A stretch of DNA of 27,323 nt, from the NCBI GenBank assembly GCA_964453345.1, contig CAYVOC010000002.1, forward strand, positions 1 to 27,323, written 5' to 3'. Every line of letters starts with the position of its first letter. The first letter of the stretch is position 1. Made by a program: the position numbers and the translations under genes. Origin of the DNA: an uncultured Aquificales bacterium. Lineage in GTDB: Bacteria > Thermosulfidibacterota > Thermosulfidibacteria > Thermosulfidibacterales > Thermosulfidibacteraceae. Below the pieces are notes generated by a model, which was not told where the DNA came from, did not search any database, and was given only the letters and a program-made list of their open reading frames with translations. Positions 10,208-20,283 of this stretch are shown here, piece after piece.

Positions 10208-11935
10208 CTAAGAGACCGCCCTTATAACTTCCTCAAGGGTTGTTATCCCCCTCTTTGCCTTTAGCAGACCGGCCTCCCTCAACTCAAGCATGCCGTTGGC
10301 CTTGGCAAGATCCCTTATCTCGTCCTCAGATCCCCCTCTGACAATAGCCCTCCTTATATCCGGGGTCACCTCCATAAGCTCATAAACCGCTATTCTGCCC
10401 TTGTATCCGGTATTTCTACACCGGGAACAACCCTCGCCTATGAAAAAGGGACCATCCTCGGGGGTGAGTCCAAGGGTCTCAAGCACCTCATGGGGAGGGG
10501 TATACTCTCTCTTACAGTAGGGGCATATCTTCCTGACCAGCCTCTGGGCCACAACAAGGATCAAAGAGGAGGATACCAAAAAAGGCTCCACGCCCATATC
10601 GATAAGCCTGGTAACAGTGGCCGGTGCATTGTTGGTGTGAACCGTTGAGAAGACCAGATGACCGGTCAGAGCAGCCTTTATTGCTATATCCGCCGTCTCC
10701 CTGTCCCTTATCTCCCCCACAAGGATAATGTCCGGGTCCTGTCTCAAAAAGGCCCTCAAGGCCGAGGCGAAGGTCAAACCAACAGCCTCATTCACATTCA
10801 CCTGGTTTATCCCCTCAAAGTTATACTCAACGGGGTCCTCAACGGTCATAATGTTAACCTTCGGGGAGTTGAGAATCCTCAAAGCCGAATACAGGGTGGT
10901 GGTTTTACCGGAACCCGTAGGCCCCGTTATCAAAATCATCCCGTAGGATTTTCTTATGCTTCTCTCAAAGATCTTCTTCTGCTCCTCCTCAAAGCCCAGA
11001 AGATCCAGATCAAGCACAAGCCCGGCCTTATCAAGAAGCCTCATAACCACCTTTTCGCCTGTAACCGTGGGAACTGTGGAGACACGGATATCTATCTCCC
11101 TGCCGCTCACCCTTGCCTTTATCCTTCCGTCCTGGGGAACCCTTCTTTCCACAACATTCAGCTTCGCCATAACCTTCACCCTTGCAACGATGGCGTCCCG
11201 CATCTTGGTGGAAACCGTCATCTGCTCCTCAAGAACCCCATCTACCCTGAACCTTACCCTGACCCTCTTCTCATAGGGCTCTATGTGTATGTCGCTTGCC
11301 CCCTTGGCCACCGCCTCCTTGAGGAGAAAGTTGACGAGCCTGACCACGGGAGCCTGATAGGCAAGCTCCTCAACGGTCCCGACACTCAGGGTGTCATCCT
11401 CTTCGGAAACCAGATCTATCTCCCCCTCATCCTCCTCCAGGGCTGCCTGATCTTCTGAAACTATATCTTTGAGTAGCTCATCCTTCTTTGCAGACTCATA
11501 GAGGACTTCTCTTGCCGCCTTTACAAAATCCTCGGTGGAAAGCACCACCTTGACGTTGTAGCCCGTTGCAAACCTTATGTAATCCATGGCCGAAATATCA
11601 AGAACATCGGGAGAGGCAAGCCATATGATCCCGTCCTCCTTTTTCACGGGAACCACGTTGAACATGGAAGAGATGCGTTCCGGAACAAGCTTGGCAAGTT
11701 CTTTATCTATCTTTTCAGGATCAAGACACTCCTCGACACTCTTCAGGGTTGCCCTATACTCCTGAAGGGTCTTCTCAAGAACGTCCCTTGCCACATACCC
11801 CTTCTCAACGAGTATATCCCCGATGCGCTTACCCGTTCTGGCCTGCTCCTTCAGGGCATCCTCGAGCTGTTCCTCCGTGATGAGGCCCTTTCTTATGAGG
11901 AGTTCCCCGATCCTCAGCCTGGCAAAGCTTCCCAT
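10208..11935 (-). CDS. pilB: Type IV pilus assembly ATPase PilB (GspE/PulE family) with N-terminal MshEN domain
   Basis: ASDIHIEP, GPTGSGKTTT, LRQDPD, tetra-Cys motif CPYC..CSRC and N-terminal tandem RIG-xxLxxxG motifs; adjacent to pilT. Confidence 0.93.
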   Translation of the reverse strand: MGSFARLRIGELLIRKGLITEEQLEDALKEQARTGKRIGDILVEKGYVARDVLEKTLQEYRATLKSVEECLDPEKIDKELAKLVPERISSMFNVVPVKKEDGIIWLASPDVLDISAMDYIRFATGYNVKVVLSTEDFVKAAREVLYESAKKDELLKDIVSEDQAALEEDEGEIDLVSEEDDTLSVGTVEELAYQAPVVRLVNFLLKEAVAKGASDIHIEPYEKRVRVRFRVDGVLEEQMTVSTKMRDAIVARVKVMAKLNVVERRVPQDGRIKARVSGREIDIRVSTVPTVTGEKVVMRLLDKAGLVLDLDLLGFEEEQKKIFERSIRKSYGMILITGPTGSGKTTTLYSALRILNSPKVNIMTVEDPVEYNFEGINQVNVNEAVGLTFASALRAFLRQDPDIILVGEIRDRETADIAIKAALTGHLVFSTVHTNNAPATVTRLIDMGVEPFLVSSSLILVVAQRLVRKICPYCKREYTPPHEVLETLGLTPEDGPFFIGEGCSRCRNTGYKGRIAVYELMEVTPDIRRAIVRGGSEDEIRDLAKANGMLELREAGLLKAKRGITTLEEVIRAVS

Positions 11936-11976
11936 GCAGACAAGAATAAAGAAAAAGGCGGGGTAAAATCAAGGAA

Positions 11977-12049
11977 TGGCGGCGGAGGGATTCGAACCCC
12001 CGACCCGGCGCTTATGAGACGCCTGCTCTACCACCTGAGCTACGCCGCC
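11977..12049 (-). tRNA. tRNA with CAT anticodon, most likely elongator tRNA-Met; CCA not encoded
   Basis: GGCGGCG TA GCTC AGGTGGTA GAGC A GGCGT CTCATAA GCGCC GGGTC GGGGG TTCGAAT CCCTC CGCCGCC A folds into a full cloverleaf. G1-C72 is paired, so it is not an initiator. tRNA-Ile2 cannot be fully excluded. Confidence 0.93.
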
Positions 12050-12060
12050 CTGCAGCTTGT

Positions 12061-12089
12061 CTAATAAAATTCCCACCGGCTTTTGTCAA
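12061..12089 (-). promoter_or_regulatory. Putative sigma70 promoter of the tRNA
   Basis: TTGACA (12089-12084), 17 nt spacer, TATTAG (12066-12061), 11 nt upstream of the tRNA 5' end. Confidence 0.55.
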
Positions 12090-12094
12090 GCCAG

Positions 12095-13051
12095 CTATAT
12101 CTCCTCCCCCTGATAACAGCACTTGCAGGAGATCTTCTCTATCACCGAGTAGGGATCGATCCTTTTTTCAAACATCTCATTTATTATCTGGGAGTATAGC
12201 CCCTTCTCCTCCATTCTCTTGATCAGATCCTCCAGAAGTTTATCCTTCAGAAGCAGCAAAAAGAGATTCTCCAGCCTGTCCCTTCTGTAGCTCTCAAATC
12301 TGCCCGTCTTCTCAAGAAATCTTTTGTGTTCAAAGATGCCCTCGATCAGCTCGTCGAAGCCCTCATCCTTCATGGCGCTCACCTTGTAGACGGGCACCTT
12401 CCAGCCCTCTTCCCTTGGGGGACTCATATCAAGCATCACCTTCAACTCCCTGACGGTCTTATCCGCTTCAGGTTTATCGCCCTTGTTAACCACAAAGATG
12501 TCGGCAATCTCCAGAACCCCCGCCTTTATAGCCTGTATGTCATCTCCCAGGCCGGGAACGGTGACCACGATTGTGGTATCCGCCGTCTTGACTATGTCCA
12601 CCTCGTCCTGACCAACTCCAACGGTCTCAACGATGATTATGTCCATACCCATGGCATCCATGACCTGGATAACATCGTCGGTGCACTTGGCCAGCCCCCC
12701 CAAATGCCCCCTCGTGGCGAGGGACTTCACAAAAACACCCTCATCGAGGGAGTGATCCTGCATCCGGATCCTGTCACCAAGTATAGCGCCCCCGGAGAAG
12801 GGACTTGTGGGATCTATGGCAACCACTCCCACCTTATAGCCCCTCTTTCTGAGATGGGAGACCAGCTTGTTTATCATGGTGCTTTTGCCAGCCCCCGGAG
12901 GACCGGTGATCCCAAGAATATAGGCCCTGCCCGTGTAGGGATATATGCGCTTCAAAATCTCCTTACCTTCAGGATACTCATCCTCCACAAGCCTGATGGC
13001 CCTTGCAGCAGCCCTTCTATCCCCCTTAAGCAGCTTATCAATCAACCCCAT
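12095..13051 (-). CDS. meaB: MeaB/ArgK GTPase chaperone of adenosylcobalamin-dependent mutases
   Basis: GITGPPGAGKST, AIDPTSPFSGGAILGDRIRM, ETVGVGQDE, GDDIQAIKAG and NKGD. ATG 13051 has GAGGTG upstream; GTG 13060 is an alternative start. Confidence 0.96.
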   Translation of the reverse strand: MGLIDKLLKGDRRAAARAIRLVEDEYPEGKEILKRIYPYTGRAYILGITGPPGAGKSTMINKLVSHLRKRGYKVGVVAIDPTSPFSGGAILGDRIRMQDHSLDEGVFVKSLATRGHLGGLAKCTDDVIQVMDAMGMDIIIVETVGVGQDEVDIVKTADTTIVVTVPGLGDDIQAIKAGVLEIADIFVVNKGDKPEADKTVRELKVMLDMSPPREEGWKVPVYKVSAMKDEGFDELIEGIFEHKRFLEKTGRFESYRRDRLENLFLLLLKDKLLEDLIKRMEEKGLYSQIINEMFEKRIDPYSVIEKISCKCCYQGEEI

Positions 13052-13053
13052 CT

Positions 13054-13806
13054 TCAACACCTCGCAAGTATAGTGTAGATCTGATACTGACCAAACCCCT
13101 TGGCATCCATATCATAGGCTCTGTTGAGAAGGCTCTTTATAGCGGAAAGCCTTCCCCAGGATCTCAAGGCCACATTTTTGGCAAGCTCCCTCACCCTTTC
13201 GCCGAGTCTATCATGCTCCACAACCTCGTGAACGATCCCCAACTCAAGAGCCTCAGAAGCGGAAAGGATCCTCGCCGTGAAAAACATCTCCTTGGCCGCC
13301 CTCACTCCCACAAGCCTTCTTAAACGCTGGGTCCCACCAAAACCGGTTATTATCCCCATCTTGCATGCAGTATGGGCTATCTTCGCCCTGTCAGAAGCTA
13401 TCCTCAGATCACAGGCCATGGAAAAGTCAAAGCCACCGCCCATGCAATACCCGTCTATGGCGGCTATGATAACCTGAGGGACCCTTTCCATGGTGTTGAA
13501 AAGCTCGTGACCAAGATCACAAAACCAGAGGGCATCGTATTTATCAAAGGAGTCCAGCTCCTTTATATCCGCGCCCGCCACGAAAACCTTATCACCGGCG
13601 CTCTCAACCACCACAACCCTGATCCTTCTGTCGTATAGAAGGGATTTGAAGAAAAGGACAAGCTCCCTTAGGGTGTCAACGCTTAAGGTATTCATCTTTC
13701 GGGGGCGGTCTATGAAAAGGTAAGCAACCGCCCCCTCATACTCAACCTTTATGTTCTCAAAGGCTAAAGCTTGACGGGACGAGGTTTCACATTGTTTCTC
13801 ACCCAT
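13054..13806 (-). CDS. Enoyl-CoA hydratase/isomerase (crotonase) superfamily protein with non-canonical active site
   Basis: [15 protein letters not shown] oxyanion motif, [13 protein letters not shown] and [14 protein letters not shown] lies 8 nt before ATG 13806; 43-nt overlap with the upstream gene. Confidence 0.9.
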
Positions 13807-14180
13807 TCAACGATCTCCTCAAGGGGTGTTCCCGGAAGGAAGATCTCCTTAACCCCAACCTCCTTGAGCTTGGGAATATCATCAAGGGGGATAATGCCTC
13901 CCCCAAACACCACCACATCATCCAAGCCGGCCTCCTTAAGCTTCTGCATCAAGGTGGGAAAGACATACATGTGGGCCCCAGAAAGGATACTTATGCCGAT
14001 GGCGTCAACGTCCTCCTCAAGAGCCGCCTGGACGATCTGATCTATGGACTGGTGAAGCCCGGTATAGATAACCTCAAAACCCGCATCCCTCAAAGCCCTT
14101 GCCACAACCTTGGCTCCCCTGTCGTGCCCATCAAGACCCGGCTTGGCTATGAGTATTTTAACCTTCCTCTCCTGAGCCAT
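13764..14180 (-). CDS. icmB: Cobalamin-binding small subunit of the acyl-CoA mutase (IcmB/MCM C-terminal domain)
   Basis: [12 protein letters not shown] (DxHxxG), SILSGAH, GGIIP and FLPGT. Confidence 0.93.
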
Positions 14181-14203
14181 ACCCTACCTCCTCCAGAAAC
14201 TGG

Positions 14204-14974
14204 TTATTTAAACTCCAGATCCCTAACCCCATCAGGGTCTATTCTTCTTATAAACTCAAGCTCCTGCTCCGTGGGGGGGTCGGTGGTCGGAACCTCATCC
14301 GGAACGATCAGCTCAAAGCCGGTATTGCTGATCACATCCTCAAGACTGACTCCGGGGTGAAGAGAGACCAGCCTCATCCTCTTAGTCTTGGGCTCAAAGT
14401 CCATAACACACAGATTGGTGATAACCTTCCTCGGACCCCCCTTGGGTATCCCAAGCCTCTCCCTGGTATCCCACCCGTTTATGTATCCCTGACCGGTTAT
14501 GAACCCCACCTTCTCCACAAAAACCCTGCTGCTGTGCCTTGGAACCCATATAACCGTCTCCATAAAGGCGCAAAGATAGGCGGATGCCGCACCACCGGGC
14601 AACCTGACCTTGGGCCTCTCATAGCTACCTATAACGCTCAAATTCGTATTGCCATACATGTCAACCTGCGCCGCTCCCAAAAATATCAGGTCAAGCTCCC
14701 CTCTCTGGGCCAGGTCAAAGACCTCGGCCAGGGGAACATAGGCCACACAGTTCTCCTGGAGTTTTGGAGCAGCAGTTGAAAAGGGCACCTTTGAAGGGGA
14801 AGGATCCACAGCGTCCGCCGTGTTGAAGTAGACCATGTTGGGAGCGTGGGTGTTCTTGGCGAGAAGACAGGCTATCATGGGCATGGGGGAGTAGAGTCCC
14901 TGAAGGACCCTGTCCCCATCCCTTATCTCCCTTGCCATAAGGCTTATCATAAGTTCACTCACGGTGTATTCCAT
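14204..14974 (-). CDS. Family I CoA-transferase-fold beta subunit (GctB/AibB/IpdB-like), catalytic Glu absent
   Basis: LGAAQVDMYGNTNLSVIG.Y..PKVRLPGG, VITNLCVMDF, LHPGV and NTGFEL. Confidence 0.9.
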   Translation of the reverse strand: MEYTVSELMISLMAREIRDGDRVLQGLYSPMPMIACLLAKNTHAPNMVYFNTADAVDPSPSKVPFSTAAPKLQENCVAYVPLAEVFDLAQRGELDLIFLGAAQVDMYGNTNLSVIGSYERPKVRLPGGAASAYLCAFMETVIWVPRHSSRVFVEKVGFITGQGYINGWDTRERLGIPKGGPRKVITNLCVMDFEPKTKRMRLVSLHPGVSLEDVISNTGFELIVPDEVPTTDPPTEQELEFIRRIDPDGVRDLEFK

Positions 14975-14978
14975 GGCA

Positions 14979-15788
14979 CTATCCCTTAAGCACGTATTTT
15001 TTCAAATATTCCTCAAAGCCCTCGGGGGTCTTTGAAAGCTTAGCATACTCCTTTATGTGCCCATCATCAGAATCGTAGTATCCGTCGCAGGATGTGGGAT
15101 ACGCCCCCTTGGGTGCGTGAACAACCGCGCTCACGTAAAAGTATGGGATCGTTGTGGCATGGGGATTCGCCTTTATTTCCTCATGAGGAATTATCTCCTC
15201 CACGCTGACTATAACCTTCTTAGCCCCCTTGGCCATGTATACGTCTTCCCAGGGAGATCCCAGAAGCTGAACATTCCCATATTCATCGGCCCTGTGGGCG
15301 TGGATGAGGGCAACATCCGGATTCAAGGCCTTAACGAGAACCATCTTCTCCCCTGTGAAGGGGCAGATGAACTCCTTTATGGTCTTGCTGTGCCTCAAAA
15401 CATCCGAACCTATCATCCCCTTAACGGGAATGCACGGAATTCCCATGGCAGAAGCCCTTATGGAGTTTATTATCGTGCCGCAGGCATGCTCATCCAGCTC
15501 TATCTCCCCGGCTTCCGCCTTCCTCCTGAAATTAGGAGCAAGGCCAAACTCCTCCAAGGAGACAAGGGCAAAGGAAACCTTTTTGACACAGCCCGCACCT
15601 ATAAGCATATCGAAGTCCATTCCCTTCTCACGGCCAAGGATATGCAGATCCCTTTTGTTCTGCCTTATCACTTCCCTAACCAGCTCCATGGGGCAACGAT
15701 TCCTGCCCACCCCGCCTATGGCAACAACATCCCCGTCTGATACAAACCTGCTTACGGCCTCAGAAAGATCCATCAACCTTCTCTCCAT
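14979..15788 (-). CDS. Family I CoA-transferase-fold alpha subunit (GctA/AibA/IpdA-like)
   Basis: DGDVVAIGG, DMLIGAGCV, CPFTGE, PDVALIHAHRADEYGN and VSVEEI. Start moved to ATG 15788 (MERRL), just downstream of the mutase stop. Confidence 0.9.
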   Translation of the reverse strand: MERRLMDLSEAVSRFVSDGDVVAIGGVGRNRCPMELVREVIRQNKRDLHILGREKGMDFDMLIGAGCVKKVSFALVSLEEFGLAPNFRRKAEAGEIELDEHACGTIINSIRASAMGIPCIPVKGMIGSDVLRHSKTIKEFICPFTGEKMVLVKALNPDVALIHAHRADEYGNVQLLGSPWEDVYMAKGAKKVIVSVEEIIPHEEIKANPHATTIPYFYVSAVVHAPKGAYPTSCDGYYDSDDGHIKEYAKLSKTPEGFEEYLKKYVLKG

Positions 15789-15801
15789 CAAACAACCCCC
15801 G

Positions 15802-17514
15802 TTAGAAGAATGCGGGGTCCTTATACTCACCAAAGACATCCTTCATGGCGTTGCAGATCTCACCTATGGATGCGTATTCCCTGACCAGATCTATGATTAT
15901 GGGCATGACGTTCTCCTTCTCGTCCTTACAGGCATCCCTCAGGTCATCGAGCAGCCTCTTCACCTTGGCGTTGTCACGCTTGCGTCTCACCTCGTTGAGT
16001 CTCTCAATCTGCACCCTCTCAACCTCGGGATCTATTTTCAGGATCTCTATGGGCAGATCGTGCTCCTCACCCATCACAAACTCATTAACTCCCACAATGA
16101 TCTTTTCCTTGTTCTCAACCGCCTGCTGGAAGCGGAAGGCGGACTCTGTTATCTCCCTCTGCGGATACCCCTTCTTGATGGCCTCAAGCATGCCGCCCAT
16201 CTCCTCTATCTTGTAGATATACTCCCAGGCCTTTTCCTCTATCTGATTGGTCAAAGCCTCCACGAAGTAGGAGCCGGCAAGGGGATCTATGGTGTTGGTT
16301 ATGCCCGACTCATAGGCGATGATCTGCTGGGTTCTTGTGGCAACGGTGACAGCTTCCTCTGTGGGAAGGGCCCACGTCTCGTCCATGGAGTTGGTGTGCA
16401 GCGACTGGGTTCCTCCAAGCACCGCCGCCATGGCCTCTATGGTGGTTCTAACAATGTTATTGAGGGGCTGCTGGGCCGTGAGGGAGCATCCAGCAGTCTG
16501 GGTGTGGAACCTCATCCACCAGGATCTGGGGTTCTTGGCGCCGAACCACTCCTTCATGATCTTGGCCCACATGCGGCGGGCTGCACGGAACTTGGCTATC
16601 TCCTCAAAGAAGTCCATGTGGCTGTCGAAGAAGAAGGAGTATCTGGGGGCAAAGGCGTCCACATCAAGACCGGCGTTTATCCCCATTCTCACATACTCAA
16701 TGCCATCGGCCAGGGTGAAGGCGAGCTCCTGAACGGCCGTGGCCCCCGCCTCCCTTATGTGATAGCCGGAGATGGAGATGGTGTTCCACTTAGGAACATG
16801 GTGGGTGCAGTAAACCACTATATCCCTGACAAGTCTCAGCGAGGGTTCGGGAGGATAGATCCAGGTCTTCTGTGCGATGAACTCCTTGAGCATGTCGTTT
16901 TGCACGGTGCCGCCTATTTTGTCCTGGGAAACCCCCTGCTTCTCGGCGCAGACGATATACATGGCTAGAAGAACGATGGCGGGGGGATTTATGGTCATGG
17001 AGGTAGTGATCTTGTCCATGGGGATGCCGTCAAAGATGATCTCAAAGTCCTTCAGGGTATCCACGGCAACACCGCATTTGCCAACCTCGCCCCTCGCCAT
17101 GGGATCGTCGGAATCCCTCCCGTAGAGGGTGGGGAAGTCAAAGGCGATGGAGAGTCCCGTCTGGCCTATGGAGAGCAGATACTTATAGCGCTTGTTGGTC
17201 TGCTCCGGGGTTCCAAAGCCCGCAAACTGCCTGATGGTCCAGATCCTTCCGCGATACATGGTGGTGTGAACGCCGCGGGTGAAGGGGTATTCACCCGGAA
17301 AGCCCAGATCCCTCATGTAGTCAAAATCTTTAATATCTTCAGGCGTGTAAACCCTCTTTATCTCCAAGTCAGACAGGGAATAGAACTTCTCCTTTCTCTC
17401 CGGGTGTTTCGCCATTTCCTTAGCGAGGGGACCCTGCTCCCACCTCTCCCTTTCCCTTGTTATCTCTTCAATGGCCTCATCGTTGAAGAGCCTGTTTTTC
17501 GCCTTCACCTCCAT
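15802..17514 (-). CDS. icmA: Adenosylcobalamin-dependent acyl-CoA mutase large subunit (methylmalonyl-CoA mutase family, isobutyryl-CoA mutase type)
   Basis: [49 protein letters not shown] and [10 protein letters not shown]; specificity residues are F97/Q215. Confidence 0.92.
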
Positions 17515-17539
17515 GACAAACCTCCAAAAGCTAAAGTTT

Positions 17540-18076
17540 TTATCTTTCTATGCCGTCTCTCGCATCAACGCCCTTCTCTGCGTAATAGTGCCTCACCTCT
17601 ATCATCTCGGTGACAAGATCCGCCCTTTTGACCACCTCGGGATGGGCGTAGCGACCTGTCATCACAAGCTCCATGTCCTCAGGCTTCTTCTCCATAAGCT
17701 CAAGGACCTGCTCCAGCTTAACAAGCCCAAAATCCAGAGCCACGTTTATCTCATCAAGGATCAGAATGTCATGTTCATTCTTTTCCATAATCTTCCTGGC
17801 CAGCTCCAGCCCCTTCTGGGCAAGCTCTATGTCCTTGGGATCCGGGTTGTTCCTATCCACAAACTCCTCCCTGCCCATCTGAACGATGGTGACGTAGGGA
17901 GACAGCATCTCAGCAGTCTTCAACTCCCCGTAAAAGATGCTTCCCTTCATAAACTGAATGATAAAGACCCTCATCCCGTGCCCCACCGCCCTGAAGGCAA
18001 GTCCCAAGGCAGCGGTGGTTTTGCCCTTGCCGTCCCCGGTGTAAACCTGTATGTAGCCCTTCTTCAGCTTCTTCAT
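17540..18076 (-). CDS. cobO: Cob(I)alamin / cob(I)yrinate a,c-diamide adenosyltransferase (BtuR/CobO/CobA type)
   Basis: [30 protein letters not shown] and ADLVTEM..V.HY. Confidence 0.95.
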
Positions 18077-19227
18077 GAGAGAATATTCCTCGCTATCACC
18101 AGCCTCTGGATCTCAGAGGTTCCCTCATAAAGGGTGGTGACCCTTATATCCCTGTAGTAGCGCTCAACGGGAAACTCCCTTGAGTATCCGTAGCCTCCGT
18201 GGACCTGAACGGCCCTGTATGCGGCCCTGTTGGCAGCCTCCGTTGCGAAGAGCTTCGCCATGGAGGCCTCCTTTGTGAACCTGCCGCCCTTTCCGGCAAG
18301 GAACAGATCCTTGAGCCAAGCAGCCCTCAGCACAAGGGCCTCCGCCGCCTCAAGCTCTGTGGCGGTGTCGGCTATCATCCACTGTATTGCCTGAAAGTTG
18401 GCTATGGGCTGACCGAACTGGACCCTGCCCTTGGAATACTTCACCATCTCCTCAAGGCAGGCCCTCATCACACCGCAGGCCAAAGCCCCTATGCCTATCC
18501 TTCCGCCGTCAAGATCGGCCAGCATGATCTTGAACCCATCCCCCTCGTTGCCCAGAAGGTTCTCGGCCGGGACCCTGCAGTCCTCAAAGACAAGCTCCAC
18601 GGTGTTGGAGCCGCGCTGTCCCATCTTCCTCTCTTCCTTGCCGATGGTGAGTCCCGGTGTATCCTTCTCAACAAGAAGGACGCTTATCCCCTTCTTGCCC
18701 TTGGATTTGTCTGTGACTGCGGCCACCATGATAACTCCGGCATAGGCGCCGCTGGTGATGAAGATCTTGCTTCCGTTTATCACATAGTGATCCCCATCCC
18801 TGACAGCGGTGGTCTTGATGCTCCCCGCATCTGACCCCGCCCAGGGCTCGGTGAGGGCAAAGGAAGCGGCCACGTATTCGCCTGAGGCTATCTTGGGGAG
18901 ATACTTTCTCCTCTGCTCTTCGTTGCCGAACCTCCATATACCCTCTGCAACCATGTTGGTGACCGACTGGGTAACGGCGATTGAAGCTGAAACCCTTGCA
19001 AGCTCCATTATGGCAAGGGCGAAGGCTATGGTGTCCATGCCGCTTCCGCCGTATTCGGTGGGGATGGTGATGGCGTTAAGCCCAAGTTGTGCAAGCTTTT
19101 TGTGGATCTCAACCGGGAAGAACTCCTCCTCGTCCATCTTCTCTGCAATGGGAGCTATCTCCTTTTCCGCAAACTCCCTGACCATGTTCTGAAGAAGCCT
19201 GTGCTCTTCCTTCAGTTCAAAATCCAT
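18073..19227 (-). CDS. Acyl-CoA dehydrogenase (short/branched-chain type)
   Basis: FALTEPWAGSD, NGSKIFIT, KMGQRGS, GRIGI, RVQFGQPI, QVHGGYGY and YEGTSEIQR (catalytic Glu present). Confidence 0.96.
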   Translation of the reverse strand: MDFELKEEHRLLQNMVREFAEKEIAPIAEKMDEEEFFPVEIHKKLAQLGLNAITIPTEYGGSGMDTIAFALAIMELARVSASIAVTQSVTNMVAEGIWRFGNEEQRRKYLPKIASGEYVAASFALTEPWAGSDAGSIKTTAVRDGDHYVINGSKIFITSGAYAGVIMVAAVTDKSKGKKGISVLLVEKDTPGLTIGKEERKMGQRGSNTVELVFEDCRVPAENLLGNEGDGFKIMLADLDGGRIGIGALACGVMRACLEEMVKYSKGRVQFGQPIANFQAIQWMIADTATELEAAEALVLRAAWLKDLFLAGKGGRFTKEASMAKLFATEAANRAAYRAVQVHGGYGYSREFPVERYYRDIRVTTLYEGTSEIQRLVIARNILS

Positions 19228-19263
19228 TCCCTTCCTCCCATTGAAGGCGATCTGTTTTCCCTC

Positions 19264-19292
19264 ATCTTAAACGAAGGATAAAACTTTTTCAA
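19264..19292 (-). promoter_or_regulatory. Putative sigma70 promoter of the acyl-CoA/B12 operon
   Basis: TTGAAA (19292-19287), 17 nt spacer, TAAGAT (19269-19264); GGAGG SD before ATG 19227. Confidence 0.55.
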
Positions 19293-19371
19293 TAAAACTG
19301 AATCCACTTGCTTCAACTTGTTGAATTTTTCACGTTTTTTGATAATCTACACCAAAAGGAGGGAAAGGTAA

Positions 19372-19683
19372 ATGCCTATCTACGAGTTTAGATGCGAAAG
19401 ATGCGGGCGCATCAGGGAAGTTATTGTCTTAGGGGGCACCTGTCAGCCTCCCACGTGCGAGCAGTGCGGCATAGCCATGAAGCGCATCATGTCCCCCTTC
19501 GCCTACAACCCCGACAGAACCTCGGAAAGGGAAAGCAGGGTTATGAAACTCGCCTCCGACTACCTCAAGGACGGCAAGGTAAAGGACGCTGCAAGGTTCC
19601 TCAAGAAGGCCGAAGAGCACCTGAAAACGGACACCATAAAAAGGGCATCGGAAGCCCTCAATAAGGCCGTATCAGATAAGTAA
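19372..19683 (+). CDS. FmdB-family zinc-ribbon protein
   Basis: MPIYEFRCERCG...CEQCG...MKRIMS; AGGAGG SD upstream. Confidence 0.88.
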   Translation: MPIYEFRCERCGRIREVIVLGGTCQPPTCEQCGIAMKRIMSPFAYNPDRTSERESRVMKLASDYLKDGKVKDAARFLKKAEEHLKTDTIKRASEALNKAVSDK

Positions 19684-19708
19684 GGGGACCCCGGGATACC
19701 GGGGCCTT
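19684..19708. terminator. GC-rich hairpin between convergent genes, possible terminator
   Basis: GGGGACCCCGG-GATA-CCGGGGCCTT: 6-bp core stem extended past one bulge. No clear U-tract on either strand. Confidence 0.4.
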
Positions 19709-19710
19709 CA

Positions 19711-20283
19711 CTATCCCATGAGGAAGAAGATCCCTGCCGCAACCATCCCGGAGCCTACGGCCCTTATGGCCCAAAGCCCAATTTTGCTGTTCTGGAATCT
19801 CTTAACAAAGGCAACCCCGGAAAAGTGCAGAAAGGCCGTAGAGATAATCATGCCCATCATAAAGGCCACAGGCCTTGCGCCTGCCTCAAGTCCGTGGGCA
19901 AGACCGTGGAACAGCCCAAAGCCCGCTACAAGAATCATCCCCGCCACAAGGGGCAGACTCACCCTCAGGGCAACGAGGGCGCCAAGAACAGCCACGGAAA
20001 GGGCAATCACGGTCTCAACCGGGCCAAAGCTCACCTTCATAAGCCCCAGAATCCCACCAGCGGTCAAGGCGGACACGAAGGCGGCTGGAAGAAACCAGAC
20101 GGCCCTCCCCTCTTTAACCCTTGCGGCAAGCATACCCACGGCAACCATGGCAAGCAGATGATCAAGTCCGGTAAAGGGATGAAGCAATCCGCCGGTAAAC
20201 CCGTTGTTATGTCCGGGATGGGCAAAGGCCAACTGAGGGATAAGAACCAATCCTAAAGGCAAAAGCCTTCTTAAAACCCTCAT
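19711..20283 (-). CDS. hupE: HupE/UreJ family Ni/Co transporter
   Basis: Signal peptide ending AFA|HPGH, HPFTGLDHLLAMVAVG, FHGLAHG and multiple TM helices; GGAGG SD. Confidence 0.93.
   Translation of the reverse strand: MRVLRRLLPLGLVLIPQLAFAHPGHNNGFTGGLLHPFTGLDHLLAMVAVGMLAARVKEGRAVWFLPAAFVSALTAGGILGLMKVSFGPVETVIALSVAVLGALVALRVSLPLVAGMILVAGFGLFHGLAHGLEAGARPVAFMMGMIISTAFLHFSGVAFVKRFQNSKIGLWAIRAVGSGMVAAGIFFLMG

Follow-up and report, generated by a model that had tools for sequence, protein, structure and literature searches.

What does a pair of proteins with a coenzyme A (CoA)-transferase fold do between the two subunits of a vitamin B12-dependent acyl-CoA mutase, once the catalytic glutamate of such transferases has gone? 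The question is raised by a 27,323-nucleotide stretch of contig CAYVOC010000002.1 (positions 1 to 27,323; assembly GCA_964453345.1), hereafter the window, from an uncultured Aquificales bacterium of the GTDB phylum Thermosulfidibacterota. Its minus strand carries the two chains, alpha and beta, as intact open reading frames at 14979-15788 and 14204-14974. Our analysis points to a cysteine of the alpha chain, Cys103, as the residue that has taken over catalysis. We consider it rather probable that the pair is a CoA-ester-binding enzyme that uses Cys103 (selenocysteine, Sec, in some relatives) as its catalytic residue, acts on a C4–C5 acyl-CoA and does not proceed through a glutamyl-CoA thioester.

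Both chains scored well above the cut-off of 23 for family PF01144 (alpha 125.8 bits, beta 81 bits). Among solved structures, the best-scoring relative of both was the glutaconate CoA-transferase (Gct) GctAB of Acidaminococcus fermentans (1POI), which has the same Pfam family and the same two-gene layout. Beta matched GctB (1poi_B) with an E value of 4.1e-37, AibB (5mzw_D) with 1.7e-33 and IpdB (6con_B and 6co6_B) with 1e-26 to 3e-25, and alpha matched GctA with 3.3e-45, AibA with 8.8e-37 and IpdA with ~1e-32. The special likeness of beta to AibB that the original prediction had proposed is therefore not borne out by the scores. Named transferase models stayed below their curated cut-offs (pcaJ_scoB 25.4 versus 243.55, pcaI_scoA 81.2 versus 128.5 and AtoD 58 versus 315).

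Residue correspondences were taken from HMMER and profile–profile (hhalign) alignments, and are thus correspondences at the level of sequence and profile. In an ungapped, high-posterior alignment, beta Thr52 fell on the glutamate of the E-S-G motif of GctB, as had been predicted, and also on the column that differs in the deposited AibB variants 5n00, 5n01 and 5n02 (A, N and S). When the beta clade was aligned with 18 Glu-bearing relatives (hhalign probability 100%), Thr52 again took the place of their invariant Glu, and Asp54 that of their invariant Gly. Relative to GctAB, then, Thr stands in for the catalytic beta Glu and Asp for the Gly of the E-S-G motif, and GctA has a Ser where the alpha chain has its invariant Cys. 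On these alignments, the pair is a member of the Gct fold that has lost the catalytic beta Glu, and is very unlikely to work as a Glu-dependent CoA-transferase; the earlier view of it as a repurposed enzyme remains the likely one. The annotations 'glutaconate CoA-transferase' and 'CoA transferase subunit A/B', which such genes carry everywhere, are almost certainly wrong for this clade.

The residue that replaced the glutamate is not itself conserved. Among the query and its 120 best homologues (n = 121), beta column 52 holds G in 48 sequences, V in 40, T in 27, A in 5 and E in 1; because the column varies in this way, Thr52 has no special role, and we ruled it out as a catalytic residue. The proposed Thr(beta)/Cys(alpha) active site thus loses its threonine and keeps its cysteine, which is invariant in the clade and Sec in relatives. 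Two residues further on, the same 121 sequences have E in 56, D in 52, G in 6, V in 5 and Q in 2, and the clade itself (n = 123) has E in 61, D in 54, G in 6 and Q in 2, so that column 54 is acidic in 115 of 123 members. Asp54 as an obligatory, relocated nucleophile is disfavoured, given that D and E interchange; because G or Q is found in 8 of 123 sequences, we regard position 54 as a helper. The beta chains of the Cys clade also share a P-G-G-A-A motif, where other clades have P-G-S-G-G.

Conservation in the alpha chain is of a different order. Cys103 fell on the column where IpdA (6co6) has Glu and its deposited variant 6coj has Ala, confirming the predicted match to Glu105 of IpdA, which we take to be its catalytic residue. 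Column 103 is Cys in all 96 best homologues (at least 47% identity), below which level Glu takes over, and in 100 of the 121 aligned sequences overall; the 116 clade members all have it, the clade being defined by that column. Further residues conserved specifically in the clade are alpha R53, E54, N86, R111 and E181.

The two columns vary in a complementary manner. We paired alpha and beta chains at 80 genome loci, which gave 69 pairs. Where beta retains Glu52 (26 pairs), column 103 of alpha holds N, H or G, with no case of E or C; among the 43 pairs that lack the beta Glu, 24 have E there, 16 have C and 3 have another residue. The catalytic group thus appears to lie on one chain or the other, which ties alpha-103 to the active site. 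Phylogenies separated the same groups: in a FastTree analysis of 92 alpha rows, a branch with SH-like support 96 holds 40 Cys rows plus two long-branch exceptions, with a separate Cys trio placed elsewhere, and a quick IQ-TREE run on 56 sampled alpha rows, from which four long-branch rows had been dropped, put 23 Cys rows on one side (SH-aLRT 99). In both, the Glu-type alpha chains form other clades.

Selenocysteine at the same column provides further evidence for a catalytic role. Two genomes of the same phylum (G007 and G008) encode a second alpha/beta pair (54% identity) in which the reading frame is conserved and a single TGA lies exactly at column 103. This paralogous alpha gene (L193:1971-2789 on the plus strand; L194 on the minus strand) has its in-frame TGA at L193:2301-2303 and sits in the order thiolase-like, dehydrogenase, alpha(Sec), beta, dehydrogenase, aldehyde dehydrogenase. 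In a sample of 401 Desulfobacterota genomes, 140 gave an alpha-like match at E ≤1e-45, and 14 among the 150 matches listed (there being 58 further matches beyond those listed) were flagged as carrying one TGA. All 14 genes, when examined, had the stop at column 103, with widely different flanking residues. This makes 16 distinct Sec-type genes in two phyla (2 + 14).

Downstream of the TGA, all 16 genes can form a hairpin of ~7 pairs that begins 15 nucleotides after the codon (columns 19-37 of a 48-nucleotide alignment) and has an invariant G-G-C in its loop. The mean folding energy of the 50 nucleotides after the codon was -19.2 in Sec-type genes, compared with -12.3 in 33 Cys-type genes and -15.6 in 122 other relatives, and the G+C content differs as well (0.66, 0.57 and 0.61, respectively). 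In the helix, 85.7% of cells pair, compared with 74.3% in shuffled alignments (0 of 500 reach 85.7%), three pairs change on both sides, and slid-partner controls gave ≤60%; the structure was derived from the same 16 related sequences on which it was tested. SelA, SelB and tRNA-Sec are present in the genome of the window (G000) as well as in G007 and G008, and SelA was found in 5 of 5 further genomes tested. When Sec rows were added to the tree, three of them fell within the Cys clade of the query (27 rows grouped with support 89, of which 24 are Cys and 3 Sec), and the remaining thirteen formed a separate, all-Sec clade.

Finding both Cys and Sec at one column is strong evidence for a nucleophilic or redox role of alpha Cys103 in catalysis, a kind of chemistry that the original prediction had not considered. 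Taken together, the Cys or Sec at column 103, the lost beta Glu52 and the tree grouping place the pair in a large Cys/Sec clade of the Gct fold, within a family for which we detected 1,500 alpha and 2,150 beta homologues at E ≤0.001. The clade would extend what is known of this fold by a form with Cys or Sec at the alpha column and without the catalytic beta Glu. A literature search for such a selenoprotein family found no report, and neither PF01144 nor a CoA-transferase family is named in the main text of a 2026 review on prokaryotic selenoproteins (PMC13188914); if confirmed, the Sec forms add one more family to the prokaryotic selenoproteome. The Cys/Sec pair also identifies the likely catalytic residue from sequence alone, giving a direct handle for finding the reaction.

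What the enzyme might act on is suggested by its gene cluster (Table 1). Eight tightly packed genes occupy 12095-19227, each with its family confirmed by Pfam and NCBIfam, and from the acyl-CoA dehydrogenase to MeaB they are packed as if co-transcribed. Alpha starts 13 nucleotides past the stop codon of the mutase large subunit, and four nucleotides separate alpha from beta; the alpha start at 15788 is correct, because homologues measure 269-271 residues. A scan of 11800-19800 for promoters and terminators gave counts not above those of shuffled controls, and an Rfam scan of the window found the tRNA and no cobalamin riboswitch. The other genes of the window are housekeeping genes, plus one canonical thiolase (535-1725).

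Table 1 Features of the mutase gene cluster and its surroundings, in window coordinates
Feature	Position	Strand	Basis
Short-chain acyl-CoA dehydrogenase, butyryl-CoA dehydrogenase type; first gene of the cluster	18073..19227	-	Solved-structure comparison
ATP:cob(I)alamin adenosyltransferase	17540..18076	-	PF02572 221.2 bits; TIGR00708 173 bits
B12 acyl-CoA mutase, large subunit	15802..17514	-	PF01642 779.6 bits; Phe at MCM Tyr89 column, Gln at Arg207 column
Alpha subunit of the CoA-transferase-fold pair, 269 residues	14979..15788	-	PF01144 125.8 bits; GctA E 3.3e-45; invariant Cys103
TGC codon of alpha Cys103, proposed catalytic nucleophile	15480..15482	-	Column of IpdA Glu105; in-frame TGA there in 16 relatives
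Beta subunit, 256 residues, without catalytic Glu	14204..14974	-	PF01144 81 bits; GctB E 4.1e-37; hhalign against Glu-bearing relatives
Codons of beta Thr52, Ala53 and Asp54	14813..14821	-	Thr52 (14819-14821) at transferase Glu; Asp54 the conserved acid of the clade
Mutase small subunit, B12-binding	13764..14180	-	TIGR00640 173.9 bits; one genome copy by tblastn
Crotonase-fold protein without both hydratase glutamates	13054..13806	-	Alignment to Crt 5z7r; in some orthologous clusters only
MeaB G-protein chaperone	12095..13060	-	TIGR00750 385 bits, cut-off 240.75
tRNA gene, 66.7 bits	11977-12049	-	Between MeaB and type IV pilus ATPase genes; marks the operon end

The mutase does not have the residues of methylmalonyl-CoA mutase (MCM). 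In alignments to 1req, 5req (a Y89F entry that marks the Tyr89 column), 2xij and 4r3u, Tyr89 of MCM is matched by Phe, its Arg207 by Gln, and Asp117 of HcmA by Ala. Phe and Gln are found in 121 of 121 mutase sequences (the query and its 120 best homologues), and HcmA Ile90 and Asp117 are both absent from the query. This combination is presumably the isobutyryl-CoA-mutase signature for uncharged acyl groups; a literature search for the signature residues found nothing. The large subunit is 84% identical to a protein named for Thermosulfidibacter. Among solved chains, the acyl-CoA dehydrogenase scored highest against 5ol2_C (403 bits) and 5lnx_A (402.2 bits), for which 'Acyl-CoA dehydrogenase' is the only name deposited; it scored 335-372 bits against chains named butyryl-CoA or short-chain acyl-CoA dehydrogenase, and 268 against glutaryl-CoA dehydrogenase 3mpi. 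The mutase signature and the dehydrogenase, similar to butyryl-CoA dehydrogenase (Bcd), indicate that the operon handles C4–C5 acyl-CoA. Its crotonase-fold protein is probably not an enoyl-CoA hydratase, having Asp and Ala for the two glutamates of Crt 5z7r, as have 5 cluster orthologues; a canonical crotonase is encoded elsewhere in the genome (contig C63).

The insertion of the pair is fixed in the phylum. The order acyl-CoA dehydrogenase, adenosyltransferase, mutase large subunit, alpha, beta, mutase small subunit, (crotonase-like), MeaB recurs in 6 complete and 3 contig-cut clusters, and also at loci L001-L003; of the 18 phylum genomes covered, 13 have beta, and the 10 high-quality genomes include 9 that do. 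Isobutyryl-CoA mutase clusters such as Slip_0757-0760 of Syntrophothermus lipocalidus, as presented in part of PMC5017805, contain the same four mutase-system genes; here, unlike there, a CoA-transferase-fold pair is inserted between the mutase subunits and a Bcd-like dehydrogenase heads the operon. This arrangement suggests a step in anaerobic branched-chain and C4 acyl-CoA metabolism that has not been recognized.

The genome has a second mutase large subunit (contig C32:4-8362, locus L196; 62-64% identity) with the Tyr/Arg signature of MCM, accompanied by a canonical methylmalonyl-CoA epimerase (TIGR03081, 176.6 bits), a biotin carrier and, further along the contig, a carboxyltransferase match. 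That epimerase led us to reject the pair as a missing methylmalonyl-CoA epimerase. A tblastn search of the whole genome found one small subunit, no second MeaB was found, and the single copies in the operon may serve both mutases.

Outside the phylum, most clade members sit far from any mutase. Cys-type pairs there often follow an AMP-forming ligase, sometimes with a UroD-like gene, and in one case a four-subunit 2-oxoacid:ferredoxin oxidoreductase precedes the pair. In Desulfobacteraceae and related bacteria (L007, L012, L016 and L088), the AMP-forming ligase and UroD-like neighbours recur: in L007 the UroD-like gene sits upstream, on the other strand, a DUF169 gene lies in between in L016, and L012 has the UroD-like gene only. 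A Dehalococcoidia contig (L049:4150-10005) carries a different Glu-less pair, with Gly at alpha-103. It is followed directly by genes for a crotonase, a mutase large subunit (34% identity), a mutase small subunit and a crotonase, and a 4-hydroxybutyryl-CoA-dehydratase-like gene is nearby. This is an independent pairing of a Glu-less pair with a mutase. Literature searches for a characterized Glu-less pair beside a mutase gave nothing relevant.

Two Glu-less members of the fold with known functions offer the closest comparisons. IpdAB, a COCHEA-CoA ring-cleaving hydrolase of actinobacterial steroid catabolism (6CO6, 6CO9, 6COJ and 6CON), likewise lacks the beta Glu and has its functional residue at the same alpha column. 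It differs in having Glu there rather than Cys or Sec, in forming a separate clade and in lying among steroid-ring genes rather than beside a B12 mutase. No steroid ring C/D catabolic genes were found among the partners in the window and this cluster, and the substrate of the pair is probably C4–C5, unlike that of IpdAB. AibAB, the 3-methylglutaconyl-CoA decarboxylase of Myxococcus xanthus (5MZW-5N03), has Gly at the alpha-103 column instead of Cys, no acid at the column of beta Asp54, and a dispensable Cys56 in AibB, in contrast to the invariant alpha Cys103, which some relatives have as Sec. AibAB acts in an alternative isovaleryl-CoA pathway, downstream of 3-hydroxy-3-methylglutaryl (HMG)-CoA synthase. 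A search for this synthase (PF01154) found none in the genome, which is rated 99.92% complete, and the same search was positive in 7 of 14 control genomes; a pathway of the AibAB type thus finds no support. On these residue comparisons the pair is an orthologue of neither enzyme, in keeping with the prediction that its active site would match neither known example; AibAB orthology in particular was rejected, on the Gly of AibA and the missing synthase. According to PMC7756340, a general-acid role was initially suggested for AibB Cys56, but the residue proved dispensable, and its Ala, Ser, Asn and Val variants stay active; this precedent shows that the Glu column can be almost anything.

How might Cys103 act? 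With the beta Glu lost and the catalytic group moved to the alpha Cys, the enzyme would not move CoA through a Glu-CoA thioester. A short acyl-CoA would be bound in the conserved site, and the Cys103 thiolate would attack an electrophilic carbon, either the beta-carbon of a 2-enoyl-CoA or a 3-oxo or thioester carbonyl. A covalent thio-adduct would form and then be resolved, with beta Asp54 as a possible helper. Our first choice of chemistry, a tentative one that we would not call probable, is C–C cleavage of the IpdAB kind (described as retro-Claisen hydrolysis in a section of PMC6678751) or addition–elimination on an enoyl- or 3-oxo-acyl-CoA. Thiol- or selenol-dependent reduction would rank next, then isomerization or decarboxylation, and true CoA transfer last.

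Several observations weigh against this proposal. The position of Cys103 in the active site depends on homology to IpdA, the role of whose Glu105 we have assumed. One genome of the phylum (L192) and a metagenome contig (L081) keep alpha, beta, mutase small subunit and MeaB but miss the mutase large subunit that elsewhere separates the adenosyltransferase from alpha, and ordinary butyryl-CoA oxidation is already covered by the thiolase of the window and a canonical hbd-crt-bcd-etfBA set (contig C7). Neighbours outside the phylum are heterogeneous (AMP-ligases, 2-oxoacid:ferredoxin oxidoreductase and stand-alone pairs by gluconeogenesis genes), and a generic reaction on acyl-CoA or the CoA thiol fits these contexts at least as well as pathway-specific C–C cleavage does. 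Finally, bacterial selenocysteine occurs mostly in redox enzymes, as stated in part of PMC1794560, and this favours a redox function.

A thiol/selenol redox enzyme on a CoA-binding fold is accordingly the alternative that survives best, although we think it unlikely. Such an enzyme would reduce a C=C or C–X bond of an acyl-CoA through an Se or S adduct, or act on the CoA sulfur (persulfide or mixed disulfides, in a sulfur-reducing lineage), and an external dithiol would re-reduce it. Exchange of Sec and Cys at one site is, again following PMC1794560, the classical sign that a cysteine is redox-active. Most Sec-type pairs lie by themselves, with no acyl-CoA pathway genes around them, which suggests a general function, and 113 of the 116 clade members have a second alpha cysteine, C234. 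However, C234 is missing in 2 of the 16 Sec-type proteins and is shared by 47% of the non-clade relatives, so that no obligatory resolving cysteine is evident; C234 is not supported in that role. Moreover, the operon contains no thioredoxin or reductase gene, and its other members are acyl-CoA enzymes.

The pair could still be a CoA-transferase that supplies the adjacent mutase and dehydrogenase with activated isobutyrate or butyrate, through beta Asp54 as a relocated nucleophile or an unusual Cys-assisted mechanism. No other reading gives the operon so simple a pathway; for clostridia, PMC7764203 puts forward a predicted CoA-transferase next to a butyryl/isobutyryl-CoA mutase, the acidic beta-54 of most clade members could participate, and the ligase or oxidoreductase neighbours elsewhere could supply a CoA donor. 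We nevertheless judge it distinctly unlikely. The Glu column is occupied by G, V, T or A, and the residue at beta-54, with its free exchange of D and E and its occasional G or Q, is unlike a covalent nucleophile and corresponds to an invariant Gly in Glu-bearing relatives. The invariant residue is instead the alpha Cys or Sec, whose thiolate would hold the acyl group rather than CoA, and no curated transferase model reached its cut-off. Elsewhere, the genome encodes 5 AMP-forming ligases, 3 PaaK-like ligases and ~9 family III CoA-transferases, and this abundance makes CoA activation independent of the pair.

Improbable, in our estimation, is an AibAB-type decarboxylase or acid–base isomerase of a glutaconyl- or malonyl-type CoA ester, in which catalysis would depend mainly on substrate positioning and the cysteine would be a mere proton donor. 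AibAB is a solved Glu-less relative with a similar score, and Cys56 of AibB, at first a putative general acid, proved dispensable (PMC7756340). The clade-conserved alpha Arg53 and Arg111 could bind a substrate carboxylate, and a carboxyltransferase follows beta in L004. Yet an invariant Cys that is upgraded to Sec speaks for an essential nucleophile rather than a dispensable proton donor; the Gly of AibA and the absence of HMG-CoA synthase count against it as well, and the Phe/Gln mutase signature and Bcd-like dehydrogenase point to uncharged C4–C5 acyl groups. A regulatory or otherwise non-catalytic role within the mutase complex, with the gene order reflecting assembly rather than chemistry, is very improbable: throughout the phylum the genes do lie between the large and the small mutase subunit, and there are one small subunit and one MeaB to two large-subunit paralogues, but the strictly conserved Cys/Sec and the other clade-specific residues indicate catalysis, and most clade members have no mutase close by.

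A broader reading can also be considered, which is possible but on balance doubtful. The Gct fold would host a third catalytic type, a Cys/Sec-dependent acyl-CoA enzyme with a broad distribution among anaerobic bacteria and archaea. More than one unrelated lineage, indeed several, would have made it a fixed partner of unusual B12 acyl-CoA mutases, and it would carry out a thiol or selenol step (C–C, C=C or reductive) on the substrate or product of the mutase, a reaction without a known enzyme. Its Sec-bearing members would then constitute a selenoprotein family absent from the published catalogue.

Three further observations concern gene neighbourhoods. Four tandem family III CoA-transferase genes adjoin a 4-hydroxybutyryl-CoA-dehydratase-like gene on contig C2 of the same genome (C2:72605-79369, outside the window). 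Sec-type pairs of Desulfobacterota at L221, L211 and L212 adjoin a class V fructose-1,6-bisphosphatase gene (PF01950), with a phosphoglucose isomerase gene also near the pair in L212, and a similar isomerase-like gene lies near the Cys-type alpha genes of L081 and L085. These gluconeogenesis neighbours may reflect lineage synteny or hint at a general function.

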